From a virus (taxonomy: Duplodnaviria > Caudoviricetes): a DNA stretch of 42,148 nt. The stretch covers positions 1 to 42,148 of the IMG/VR virus record IMGVR_UViG_3300032257_000037; one strand, written 5' to 3'. Shown piece by piece: positions 2,987 to 10,093 of this stretch. Every line of letters begins with the position of its first letter. Position 1 is the first letter of the stretch. The notes under the pieces are model-generated. The model did not search any database, was not told where the DNA came from, and saw only the letters and a program-made list of their open reading frames with translations. A program made the translations under genes and the position numbers.

Positions 2987-3640
2987 TGCATCATGTTGTT
3001 TGTATTGTTGTAAGGCTTGTTTAAGTAGTTTGAAATTGGGTGAGATATTCGAGTAGTGGTTTCAGCTAGAGGAAGGTTGTGTAATACACTTCATATGTGA
3101 GTGTTCCACGTTGTTAGTTTTAGATTTTAGTTAAGATTATTTTAAGTAGTTTGGATTTGCATGGGATATTCGGAGATAGGCTTCTGGCACACTTCACAAT
3201 TCCTATTTCCCCCGTATCCCCTCTCAAATACACTTTTTTCCATACCTAATTTCACTTTTCACACCACCACCACACTATATTTATTTATTTATTATCTAAG
3301 TTCATGCCCTCTAAATGTATTGAATGGTTAAATGGGTATGGTATTAATGTTATATGTGTGTAATGTGATGCTTAGTGTATGTTATGTGTGTTTAATGGCC
3401 TATTATGTGTGTGTTTAGTGTGTAATTTATATTTAGTATCTACCCAACAAAATCAACCCCCAAAAACCCTATATATATACTATAGTGTAAATCAAACTTC
3501 AAACAACAAAACAATACACTACTAAAACAAACAATTATCAAAAAGCTCAAACAACAAAACAATATACTACTAAAAAGAATTCAAACAATAACACAATATT
3601 CATACAACACTTAAGCAAATTCTAAGTTAACTATAGCTAT
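2987..3640. other. Long non-coding region with alternating strand skew and short repeats; candidate physical genome end or packaging region
   Basis: No credible ORF. GT-rich and AC-rich blocks with direct repeats lie just upstream of the early promoter. Confidence 0.5.
3499..3609 (+). repeat. 29-bp direct repeat tcaaacaacaaaacaata(c/t)actactaaaa, two copies plus a degenerate third
   Basis: Copies at 3499-3527 and 3547-3575 (1 mismatch) and a degenerate copy at 3581-3609. Confidence 0.85.
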
Positions 3641-6058: not shown

Positions 6059-6484
6059 ATGAGAGAGATTAAATTTAGAGGTATGGGTAAAGATGGTAAA
6101 TTTCATTATGGAAGCTTAGTTATTACTAATATATTCCTTAAGCACAAGCCTAAACAGCATACTAAAACATGGTTAGTTGAATCATCTTTTGGAAATGGTG
6201 GATGGTTTAACATAATGAAAAGAACATATATAATGCCTAATACCGTAGGGCAATACACTGGCTTAAAAGATAAAAATGGTGTTGAAATTTATGAGGGTGA
6301 TATAGTTGTAGTAAGGCGAGATGATTTAGTTTCTCCAGTTAGAGGTGCTATTCAATGGGATAATGATGGAGCTGACTATAACGTTAACACAAAAGATGGT
6401 TATTGCATTGTCGGATTTGGAGTATTAGATGATGAATATAAAGTAATCGGCAACATATACGAAAACCATGAGCTATTAGAATGA
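6059..6484 (+). CDS. YopX family protein
   Basis: MREIKFRG...TVGQYTGLKDKNGVEIYEGDIV...VIGNIYENHELL signature. Confidence 0.9.
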   Translation: MREIKFRGMGKDGKFHYGSLVITNIFLKHKPKQHTKTWLVESSFGNGGWFNIMKRTYIMPNTVGQYTGLKDKNGVEIYEGDIVVVRRDDLVSPVRGAIQWDNDGADYNVNTKDGYCIVGFGVLDDEYKVIGNIYENHELLE

Positions 6485-7251
6485 AGTATATAGCATGGTT
6501 TGTTATTATAGGCTCTATGATTATCATGCAATCTCACTCCATACCATTTTGGGAGAAAGTAACTAGCTCAACATGGAACGGATGGTTAAGTTCTATTATG
6601 GTTGAATCAGTAGCGTTATTATTTTGGTATCAAGGTTATAAAATACTAGCACCTCTAGCTACTTCTGTAGTTGTTGGCACTATTATATTTCAAATATCCG
6701 CACCAAATATAGATTTAATCATGGCTATAAGTGAGAACAAAAAGATTGATAATCAGATGCAAACAGTTGTAAGCGTACTTGATAATATTAAGGGTAAAGC
6801 TTATCCAATAACGATACAAAAGACACTCAAAACTTTAGAAGCATTGAGCGAAAAATCTAATAAAAAAGAGGTGAAATCTACAACGGAAATTCAAGTTTTA
6901 ATTATAATTGTTGAGGGAATAATGATATTTTTACTCCTATTTGCACAAATTAAAATGGTAGTGTTACTAGCTAAGAAAGAAAGTGTTACGAGTGTTACAG
7001 ATACGAGTGTTACGACCACACGTTACGAGCATACAACTACTTCTATTAACGATTTAGCTAGTGAGGTGTTACGAGAGTGTTACGAGTTTGGAGAGGTGAA
7101 TAAGTTACACTCGGAACGGGCAATTAGACTAAAACTTGATTTGAACCCTCCTGATTTTGAGAGATTAAAAAAAGTTATAAAAGATGGTGTTGGCATGAGT
7201 GAAAACAAGATGCTAGAGATAAGAGAAAAGATTAAAAATTATAAGGATTAG
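6481..7251 (+). CDS. Multi-pass membrane protein with C-terminal XRE-like HTH domain
   Basis: About 3 N-terminal hydrophobic segments, a helical linker, a 4th TM (IQVLIIIVEGIMIFLLLFAQI), an S/T linker, then SERAIRLKLDLNPPDFERLKK...MSENKMLEI resembling an HTH. Confidence 0.65.
   Translation: MKYIAWFVIIGSMIIMQSHSIPFWEKVTSSTWNGWLSSIMVESVALLFWYQGYKILAPLATSVVVGTIIFQISAPNIDLIMAISENKKIDNQMQTVVSVLDNIKGKAYPITIQKTLKTLEALSEKSNKKEVKSTTEIQVLIIIVEGIMIFLLLFAQIKMVVLLAKKESVTSVTDTSVTTTRYEHTTTSINDLASEVLRECYEFGEVNKLHSERAIRLKLDLNPPDFERLKKVIKDGVGMSENKMLEIREKIKNYKD
6961..7110 (+). repeat. Cluster of GTGTTAC(GAG) direct repeats inside the coding sequence
   Basis: Copies start at 6961, 6983, 6992, 7007, 7066 and 7077, with variants at 7020 (acgttacgag) and 7102 (aagttacac). 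Confidence 0.85.
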
Positions 7252-8387: not shown

Positions 8388-9062
8388 ATGGCTTGTAATG
8401 TCAATATAAAAGACAATTTCACCATAATTCCAAATGCTTTGTTAGGAATAGAATTATCAGATAGGGCTTTTAAGCTAGCTGTGTATATGTATTCTACTCC
8501 AAAAGATTGGGAATATCATAATGGTGTTATCTGTAAGCTACTAAACACATCAGAGAAAAGTTTAGCTAAAAGCTGGAAAGAGTTATTAGACCAAAACATT
8601 GTTACACGCACTAGGAGAGTGGTTAATGGTGTTCCAAATGGCGGTTATGATTATATAGTTCATGATGTATCACCCAAAAGTAGCGATTTACCTGACCGCC
8701 CAAAAGGTGTATCACCCAAAAGTAGCGAGACAATTAATAATACTAACCTTATAACAAAGACTGACTATACTATGGCAACTCAAAAAACCAACTATGATAA
8801 ATTATTAGATGATTGGAATGATATTGCTAAAACATTAGGGTTACAAACTATGCTTAAAATTACTAAGCCTAGACAAGATAAGTTAAAAGCTAGATTGAAA
8901 GATGATAGTAAATTCTTAGATAATTTAAATCAAGTTATCGAAGTAATTTCAGAAACTCCTTTTTTAACTGGCAGGAATAAAAATAATTGGAAAGTTGATT
9001 TTGATTGGTTGATAGCTAACTCAAACAACTATGTAAAAATATTAGAGGGGAAATATTCATGA
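8388..9062 (+). CDS. Replication initiator (lambda O/DnaD-like; N-terminal wHTH)
   Basis: NFTIIPNALL...LSDRAFKLAVYMYS..DW N-terminus and FLTGRNKNNWKVDFDWLI..NNYVKILEGKY C-terminus, typical of phage replisome organisers. Confidence 0.85.
   Translation: MACNVNIKDNFTIIPNALLGIELSDRAFKLAVYMYSTPKDWEYHNGVICKLLNTSEKSLAKSWKELLDQNIVTRTRRVVNGVPNGGYDYIVHDVSPKSSDLPDRPKGVSPKSSETINNTNLITKTDYTMATQKTNYDKLLDDWNDIAKTLGLQTMLKITKPRQDKLKARLKDDSKFLDNLNQVIEVISETPFLTGRNKNNWKVDFDWLIANSNNYVKILEGKYS
8666..8770 (+). other. Putative replication origin: two 21-bp iterons (tgtatcacccaaaagtagcga) plus an AT-rich tract
   Basis: Exact copies at 8666-8686 and 8708-8728 (42-bp period), a partial cccaaaag between them, and AT-rich sequence after. 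All lie inside the initiator gene, as in lambdoid phages. Confidence 0.75.
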
Positions 9063-10093
9063 GTACATTAAAAGAGAATCTAGGTGAGTTTAAAAGCCTC
9101 ATGGATATTATCAGCCAGCGATTAACAGTTGGTAATGTTATGGGTATGGATAATGACTATCTTAGAGAAACAGATAAGTTAATCAAGCAAAAGAAATCAT
9201 TACTGGCTAGTATCAATAAGCACTATGAGGAAATTAGAACTGGCAGAGTTGGTATGCACGAAACATTATCTGAGTATATGGAGCGTATGGAAAATACACT
9301 TGAAGTTGATGATGCTGGTCAAGTAATTATTACCAAGTATAAACTAGGTATATCAGTTATTGATGATGAGTTCCTAAATGGTCAAGGCGTTACAGACAAT
9401 GCTTTGATTGTTTTAGGTGCTGATAGTGGTGTTGGTAAGACTTCACTAGCATTTATGATTATCTCAAGCATGATTAAACAAGAACTTCCAACTCACTTTA
9501 TTTCATTAGAGATGGGTGATAAGCAGTTATATAACGAGATTAGTCCTAGTGAGAAAAACAAGCTCAAACATATTTTGAATAGTGAACACGCTGATTTATT
9601 GACTATTGATTTTTATTCAAGAGAGATAGCCGAGTTAGAAACAACTATTCAAATCATGGCTAGTAATGGAACTAAGGTTTTTGTTATCGATAGCTATATG
9701 AATGTATTTGTTGGTGAAGCTGAATATCAGAAGATGGAAATGTTATCTGATATGTTAGAAACACTAAAACGTGAACTAGGTGTGTTATTCATTCTTATCG
9801 CACAGATATCTAAATCAGATAGTGTTAATGAAGTGTATGAGTTTAAAGGCGGTACTCAATTAAAGTATCGTTGTGATTTAGCTTTATTTATTCAAAAGCT
9901 AGATGGTGAAGAAGAATCTACTAAGCGACATATCCATTGTGATAAGAATAGAATCTTTGAAGAAAAAGTAGGTTATGGGATTGTGACAGACTATGATAGG
10001 GTTGAGCATAAGATAGTTAAATTATCTAAGTTCAAGGATTACAATGGTCTAGGTCATGATAAGAAACCACTTAGAAAACTAAGTTTTGGATAA
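9059..10093 (+). CDS. DnaB-like (SF4/RecA-fold) replicative helicase
   Basis: Walker A GADSGVGKT, FISLEM, VIDSY, LIAQISK, KGGTQL and DKNR motifs. Confidence 0.85.
   Translation: MSTLKENLGEFKSLMDIISQRLTVGNVMGMDNDYLRETDKLIKQKKSLLASINKHYEEIRTGRVGMHETLSEYMERMENTLEVDDAGQVIITKYKLGISVIDDEFLNGQGVTDNALIVLGADSGVGKTSLAFMIISSMIKQELPTHFISLEMGDKQLYNEISPSEKNKLKHILNSEHADLLTIDFYSREIAELETTIQIMASNGTKVFVIDSYMNVFVGEAEYQKMEMLSDMLETLKRELGVLFILIAQISKSDSVNEVYEFKGGTQLKYRCDLALFIQKLDGEEESTKRHIHCDKNRIFEEKVGYGIVTDYDRVEHKIVKLSKFKDYNGLGHDKKPLRKLSFG

Follow-up and report, generated by a model that had tools for sequence, protein, structure and literature searches.

A single gene in the early region of a phage genome combines a predicted inner-membrane anchor, a C-terminal helix-turn-helix (HTH) domain and, within its own coding sequence, an array of short DNA repeats. 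Judged from the sequences of the gene and its relatives, the comparative case for a self-targeting membrane DNA binder is strong, and the HTH domain probably binds the array of its own gene. Through this array the product may tether the phage genome to the inner membrane at its own locus, a role for and against which we regard the evidence as evenly balanced.

Genome, protein and family

The window, meaning the whole stretch of DNA analysed, is an entire virus record of 42,148 bp with terminal repeats, and the phage is podovirus-like. Terminase, capsid, tail tube and nozzle genes on the minus strand are T7-like, the terminase being 35–38% identical to T7-like and Lau218 terminases, and the plus strand carries a lambda-like rep, DnaB, ERF and SSB module; a T7-like head/tail module is joined to a lambda-like rep/DnaB/ERF replication module in one genome. 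The gene under study lies in the plus-strand early region with a YopX gene on one side and a PD-(D/E)XK exonuclease gene on the other, and on the same strand downstream follow exonuclease, rep, DnaB, primase-like, ERF and SSB genes. Among the window ORFs scanned we found neither an RNA polymerase nor an integrase or repressor peptidase. The Pfam scan covered 57 ORFs, leaving out a portal gene fragment at 1–1068; among the 57 it found no integrase and, in this general rather than family-specific search, no ParM or TubZ. ParA, resolvase and S24 peptidase had no match in the window record or nine related records, and PF13614 (ParA-type NTPase) was detected in none of the 10 phage records and in all 14 controls. 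Mid replication initiator gene (8388–9062) lies a perfect 21-bp direct repeat (8666–8686 and 8708–8728) with a partial copy between, which is iteron-like and recalls the iterons of lambda O. These scans agree with the original description of a genome with an iteron origin and without integrase or ParA. Elsewhere, a non-coding gap at 3350–3600, near the GC-skew switch, contains two copies of a 17-nt repeat (3500 and 3548) as well as a TG-rich stretch, and is possibly a genome end or packaging region.

AlphaFold modelled the full protein with a pLDDT of 91 and a pTM of 0.57, placing helices at residues 2–28, 31–51, 56–103, 109–127 and 135–168, disorder at 173–185 and a four-helix domain at the C-terminus (Table 1). 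Over 54 rows of the family, the hydropathy profile and the charge pattern (acidic in loop 1, basic in loop 2 and just after TM4) lead us to infer four membrane-spanning helices, cytoplasmic N- and C-termini and a periplasmic hairpin; conservation is lower in the hairpin (0.31) than in the membrane helices (0.46). A profile of 20 C-terminal domains matches DBP48, a designed HTH protein (E=7e-8), an immunity repressor (E=1.8e-6) and many XRE/Cro chains, while comparison of the HTH model with Stl, 2o38, PezA and HicB3 gives moderate Z-scores of 5.4–6.1 with rmsd of 2.2–2.8. Pfam HTH matches are weak and occur in 3 of 29 family members, and two Halomonas plasmid homologues are named HTH regulators by NCBI. 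The assignment of the C-terminal domain to the XRE/Cro/lambda-repressor type is thus supported, in line with the HTH proposed from the sequence at the outset. Searches with the window protein in Pfam, NCBIfam and PADLOC gave no match, and in PHROG none below E=0.01; full-length fold searches returned generic helical matches and nothing specific, Foldseek with the HTH alone had no match at E≤0.001, and the ESM Atlas held unnamed viral look-alike clusters at 0.83–0.86, a lead at most.

Table 1. Features of the gene and its array, in window coordinates
Feature	Position	Strand	Basis
Gene for a 256-residue predicted four-helix membrane protein with C-terminal XRE/Cro-type HTH	6481..7251	+	ORF, homologues
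Predicted TM1–TM3, residues 1–75, the most conserved part of the family (Q17, W24, G34)	6481..6705	+	AlphaFold helices, hydropathy 1.2–1.5, positive-inside pattern over 54 rows, conservation; topology deduced
Helical hairpin, residues 76–134, predicted periplasmic	6706..6882	+	Membrane side deduced from helix count and charge
Predicted TM4, residues 135–160	6883..6960	+	Hydropathy up to 2.8, AlphaFold helix, basic residues after it
Disordered, poorly conserved linker, residues 163–188, with four of the eight copies	6967..7044	+	pLDDT<50 at residues 173–185; lowest conservation, 0.23
XRE/Cro/lambda-repressor-type HTH, residues 187–256, predicted recognition helix at residues 225–235	7039..7248	+	Model pLDDT 95.7, profile, fold matches
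Array of eight GTTAC cores, consensus GTGTTACGAG	6961..7111	+	Putative binding sites of the gene's own HTH

An exhaustive search found 32 homologues of the window protein at E≤0.001, to which profile searches added 10 and 18. A word-indexed search with the single protein matched only itself, a single-protein scan of viral contigs found no match, and annotated phages held no match for P0001 or P0030. The family, which is unannotated, spans phages and other mobile elements, its carriers being unrelated phages, prophage-like regions and plasmids. No conserved partner gene occurs among 141 flanking ORFs of 17 loci, TraB/FtsK had no match among the flanking ORFs scanned with PHROGs, and neighbours across loci include ERF, RecT, SSB, DNA polymerase, primase, methyltransferase, rep or integrase genes, those downstream varying from phage to phage. 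With varied neighbours and no conserved partner, the gene thus acts as a mobile, self-sufficient unit of early/replication regions. A tyrosine integrase was found in one of ten related phage records (G010, a complete phage with an array and two tyrosine integrases), and the array carrier L008 adjoins a phage DNA polymerase gene. PADLOC found no family in more than one of the 54 rows, with three unrelated single-row matches. Six Halomonas/Vreelandella copies (L025–L027, L029–L031) have a reading frame broken early, which suggests decay in a plasmid group that is also without the array.

The repeat array in the gene and its relatives

About eight copies of GTGTTAC within 150 bp had been described in the window gene, lying between the last membrane helix and the HTH. 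We count eight cores at 6961–7108; six are exact (6961, 6983, 6992, 7007, 7066 and 7077), and the two at 7020 and 7102 are degenerate, retaining the GTTAC core alone. The location also holds in part: four cores fall in the linker, one falls where TM4 ends, and the remaining three are in the first helix of the HTH and the following turn. The cores are spaced 22, 9, 15, 13, 46, 11 and 25 nt apart, with no helical phasing apparent from the spacings alone; the window has one 12-nt near-tandem pair. Their reading frames run 2, 0, 0, 0, 1, 2, 1 and 2, and synonymous recoding of the same peptide yields 3.1 expected copies against the 8 seen (p=0.0003). The repeat is conserved as a DNA-level feature, as the original prediction held; its description of a CG-rich repeat in a CG-poor genome also stands. 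The window contains 13 copies of GTGTTAC where 4.5 are expected, the excess being the linker cluster; when no motif is preset, pentamers cluster nowhere in the 42-kb genome more strongly than in the linker, none of 1388 other windows being as extreme. The linker likewise ranks top for CpG (10 CG in 177 nt, 2.0 expected; whole-genome CpG o/e 0.40). GTTAC is the reverse complement of GTAAC and thus belongs to the G(T/A)AAC (GWAAC) class defined below. A contig from a second assembler, possibly of the same sample, covers the stretch with zero differences, and we reject an assembly artefact. We likewise reject the protein as a genome-wide coater, since the motif class occurs 180 times in the genome against 175 expected.

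We retrieved DNA for 36 loci and analysed the 21 that were distinct and intact; left out were duplicates (L009, L032–L034), the window's own record (L035), near copies of Halomonas loci (L016, L019, L020, L022) and the six copies with the broken frame. Homologues had been expected to carry their own co-varying repeats. This holds for 10 of the 21 loci, each with an array of its own at the same place and of a class that follows the HTH; the other 11 (L006, L037 and nine bacterial-genome loci, including the Halomonas plasmid group, where a linker array was looked for and none found) are without a GWAAC or RGAAC linker array, and the array is therefore not a defining feature of the whole family. 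Two motif classes, GWAAC and (A/G)GAAC (RGAAC), both chosen after inspecting the linkers, describe the arrays. For GWAAC the linker beats all other windows of the locus in L002, L003, L005, L007, L008, L011, L012 and L036; for RGAAC it ranks first in L004 and second in L010. Synonymous recoding is exceeded at p<0.05 in nine of the ten array loci (L007, p=0.065), and just 4 of 388 control coding windows hold at least four copies. Copies lie on both strands in all ten loci, mostly in two or three frames, with spacings of 5 to 69 nt, mixed orientation and unrelated flanks. With no preset motif, 8 of the 21 loci place their linker within the top 1.3% of windows, which L002, L003 and L011, with copies split between two pentamers, do not. 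In nine phage genomes read nearly whole, the linker ranks first (six), tied first (one) or second (two) for its own class and is never prominent for the other.

The arrays also leave a footprint in the linker peptides, found for GWAAC in 25 of 54 rows and for RGAAC in 5, never for both, with 0–5 and 2–3 in three control regions. Among the 34 protein-only rows, which had no part in the choice of classes, 16 carry the GWAAC and 2 the RGAAC footprint, some of them being close to chosen rows; that of the window protein itself is not significant (p=0.15).

Repeats occur beyond the linker of the gene itself. G005 has a second array, of its own RGAAC class, 2.3 kb away from the TM-HTH gene, in the linker encoded by a phrog_674 gene (L048:10257–11225, equivalent to L010:3982–4953), with 12 copies against 4.6 expected (p=0.0005) in three frames and on both strands. 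Secondary GWAAC clusters lie in structural genes of G004 and G006. Directly before the start codon at L013:7965–8000 and L014:7960–8000 stand three operator-like GAAAC/GTTTC copies, kept between the two homologues. GGCGCC occurs five times in the linker at L028:8600–8765 and a GGAAGC-like motif on both strands at L023:4250–4330; these clusters, weaker and found post hoc, are possible further specificity classes. The top cluster of the L014 locus is CCATGG(A), five times at 9160–9420, within a small ORF that follows the homologue and beyond its end; we take this ORF to be of HGGxSTG type.

The class of the array appears to track the HTH tree and not the membrane-domain tree. On trees of 26 of the 54 rows (the AT-rich subfamily), motif labels change 6 times along the HTH tree (8.4 when shuffled; 2 of 200 shuffles as low), poorly resolved as that tree is with 3 of 23 branches starred and just four RGAAC rows, and 8 times along the membrane-domain tree (8.5 when shuffled; 80 of 200 as low). 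The membrane domain rejects a single clade of the four RGAAC rows (p-AU 0.0001); the HTH does not (0.21). L004 and L002 share 71% identity over the membrane part and 21% over the HTH, and differ in motif class; P0011 and P0015 (57% and 15%) show the same contrast, on classes that rest, as for P0017, P0018 and P0022, on the peptide footprint, two scans for the DNA of these five proteins having yielded no match. In the predicted recognition helix, 11 of 12 F-x-R rows are GWAAC and 4 of 4 Y/P-S/T-K rows RGAAC, the classes being post hoc and the rows not independent. HTH and array thus seem to swap as one cassette. As the linker adjoins the HTH-coding DNA, linkage alone yields some co-variation and accounts for part of what is seen; it leaves unexplained the single-class copies kept in several frames and on both strands in linkers that cannot be aligned, as well as the second array of G005 in another gene.

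Proposed membrane tethering and its alternatives

We propose that a predicted four-helix inner-membrane anchor with a C-terminal XRE-type HTH grips the array inside its own gene. Sites of 5–7 bp, in either orientation and irregularly spaced in relatives, suggest that the array would be read by avidity, by multiple HTH domains whose flexible linkers tie them to anchors clustered in the membrane plane; specificity would be supplied by the cluster of sites, and the protein would presumably oligomerise. The sites would be placed where the protein sequence is free, beside the HTH-coding DNA, and one crossover after TM4 could exchange reader and target together. Newly made protein would meet its own gene first, and any binding to the array would place the locus at the membrane. 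The likely purpose would be to hold early or replicating phage DNA there, as p16.7 does for phi29, and the tether could also help inheritance in a non-integrated carrier state. In its fullest form, which we advance tentatively and rate somewhat below even likelihood, the proposal is of a one-gene DNA-membrane attachment system with anchor, reader and target array in 770 bp, in which reader and target would fit as lock and key, be exchanged as one cassette and give each phage a membrane address of its own.

Within the tether proposal, the range of lifestyles among carriers is better matched by an anchor for early or replicating DNA than by partition of a plasmid prophage, a weakly supported reading that we consider unlikely. 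As a general role, partition is at odds with the 11 of 21 loci without an array, and it sits poorly with an array carrier that has two tyrosine integrases (G010), another that adjoins a phage DNA polymerase gene (L008), the lack of a conserved partner or linked NTPase gene, and irregular, mixed-orientation arrays in relatives that are unlike phased iterons.

Against a tether, XRE domains are mostly transcription regulators, and the GAAAC copies of L013 and L014 stand at the start codon, where an operator would be. The protein might instead be a membrane-bound one-component regulator, for which ToxR, CadC and BcrR are models: the HTH on the intragenic array would act as a roadblock or looped operator for the gene itself and the downstream replication genes, the hairpin would sense an envelope signal such as superinfection, and tethering would be a side effect. 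The XRE fold, the start-codon sites, the position upstream of the exonuclease, rep, DnaB, primase-like, ERF and SSB genes on one strand, and the two arrays of G005, which flank a divergent intergenic region, all speak for this account, to which we attach a low yet appreciable likelihood. Yet the window sites lie 480–630 nt inside the gene and not at a promoter, the promoter signal near the array is at chance level (33 against 34.6), the downstream genes differ between phages, and the putative sensor is less conserved than the membrane helices. XRE operators, too, are unlike irregularly spaced sites of mixed orientation.

More distant is an exclusion or abortive device gated by DNA, in which the membrane protein would catch incoming DNA with a cognate array and exclude members of the same group, or its helices would form a channel gated by the HTH-DNA state, cassette swaps making new exclusion groups. 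Stand-alone mobility among unrelated phages, prophage-like regions and plasmids, the repeated swaps of HTH and array, and the pores formed by SpdB2, a four-helix DNA-binding membrane protein in the accessible part of its description (PMC4447253), are consistent with such a device. We nonetheless find it improbable: no PADLOC family recurs among the 54 rows, an incoming phage could cheaply shed an array and yet arrays persist, and most carriers have no detected integrase or repressor peptidase, and hence no lysogen to protect.

Two further accounts leave the gene's own HTH out. Short cores of this kind are common regulator half-sites, GTTAC resembling those of the OmpR/PhoB family and GAAC that of LexA, and the array could be read by a host or other phage factor, as the one 11-nt pair in the window (7066, 7077) might hint. 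Such a reader seems quite improbable when the class switches with the HTH between close genes (L002/L003 against L004), spacing and orientation are irregular, and the cluster always lies beside HTH-coding DNA. Alternatively, the copies could be a neutral by-product of slippage or micro-duplication in a free linker, carried along by linkage to the HTH; the linker is indeed the least constrained part, the window has its near-tandem pair, and 11 of 21 loci do without an array. However, slippage yields tandem copies in frame and on the same strand, whereas here they occupy all frames and, in relatives, both strands with unrelated flanks; copies run on into the HTH helix, which is conserved, and proteins just 20–40% identical share the same cores. 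Neutral origin is already disfavoured and to our minds very improbable.

If the tethering proposal is true, the gene would be a natural minimal version of the membrane attachment in the replicon model, one that places, inherits or distinguishes phage genomes without NTPase or partner. It has long been asked whether a replicon can be positioned or segregated simply by DNA-membrane attachment; simulations, in the accessible text of one study, call for a gradient of tethering sites (PMC3792344). The family provides one portable gene with natural variants in specificity (L002 against L004); its anchor, reader and site can be removed or swapped separately, which makes the question directly testable. 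The protein-coding linkers would be shaped by selection at the DNA level, with a peptide footprint of VT, ET, RN and KQ as against EQ, EH and RT, from which the target of an HTH could be predicted given just the protein sequence, and the family could supply orthogonal membrane tethers for plasmids.

Comparison with known systems

Our search of the openly accessible literature yielded no paper describing this family, or any integral membrane HTH protein whose swappable array lies inside its own gene. The nearest precedents are SpdA2/sps, SpdB2, RocS and p16.7 of phi29. ToxR, CadC and BcrR have a DNA-binding domain fixed to the inner membrane, as the phage protein has by prediction, and BcrR is composed of an XRE domain plus four helices. 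In these regulators, however, the DNA-binding domain is N-terminal and the operators lie at promoters, whereas in the phage gene the HTH is C-terminal and the sites are intragenic. No motif cluster precedes the window gene, and L013 and L014 have their three copies at the start codon. Compared with ParABS, ParMRC and TubZRC, no linked NTPase was found, by PF13614 in the 10 phage records and by Pfam across the 57 window ORFs, and the repeat cluster is present but irregular and intragenic. Replication iterons are phased direct repeats of 17–22 bp that go with a Rep initiator, while the array cores are short and unphased; the 21-bp iteron-like repeats of the genome have another sequence and lie in the rep gene. 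The anti-phage defence models of PADLOC leave the window protein unmatched.

Phage phi29 p16.7 and the AlpA/alpS/AlpC system of CGP3 bring replicating phage DNA to the membrane, alpS being a short degenerate repeat concentrated at its own operon; according to the accessible parts of these reports, p16.7 differs in binding terminal protein and single-stranded DNA, and AlpA in needing an actin-like NTPase and binding promoter repeats, whereas here anchor, reader and sites are one gene (PMC4974454, PMC4446434). NTPase-free segregation by RocS, StbA and pSK1 Par combines a DNA-binding domain with an oligomerising part, and RocS, like the proposed tether, binds the membrane and needs multivalency; as far as the available text describes them, these proteins differ in having N-terminal DNA-binding domains, RocS in using an amphipathic rather than integral helices, and stbS in being a separate centromere-like sequence (PMC11500499, 10.1101/2022.04.29.490116).

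In the accessible portion of its description, SpdB2 of pSVH1, which has homologues in actinophages, has four predicted membrane helices and an N-terminal coiled coil, binds double-stranded DNA non-specifically, forms pores and works with TraB; the four predicted helices, the DNA binding and the occurrence on mobile elements, phages included, are shared (PMC4447253). No sequence link to SpdB2 was found, nor is a TraB-like partner conserved at the phage loci, and no SpdB2/DUF2637-like Pfam family is among the 25 listed of 29 weak Pfam matches. Gp25 of phiC31, presumably an SpdB2 homologue, is a weak fold match (E=0.34, TM 0.24).

SpdA/SpdA2 of Streptomyces plasmids binds sps sites within its own coding sequence, and its loss affects segregational stability; the protein has 117–163 residues with an N-terminal DNA-binding region, and sps is a conserved 12-bp palindrome in 2–3 copies (PMC4170104, in its accessible part). 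Binding sites inside the cognate gene are a likeness, and in some plasmids the sites shift to the start codon or upstream of it, as the repeats do in L013 and L014 (PMC4170104, likewise). The accessible text describes no membrane domain for SpdA, whereas the phage protein is a predicted membrane protein with a C-terminal XRE domain (PMC4170104). The phage arrays consist of 4–11 pentamer cores, 5–7 bp long and of other sequence, that vary with the HTH; they have neither the 12-bp palindrome nor an SpdA N-terminal domain beside them. By the features tested, the system is a member of none of the families compared; in its working it resembles SpdA2/sps combined with a membrane anchor.
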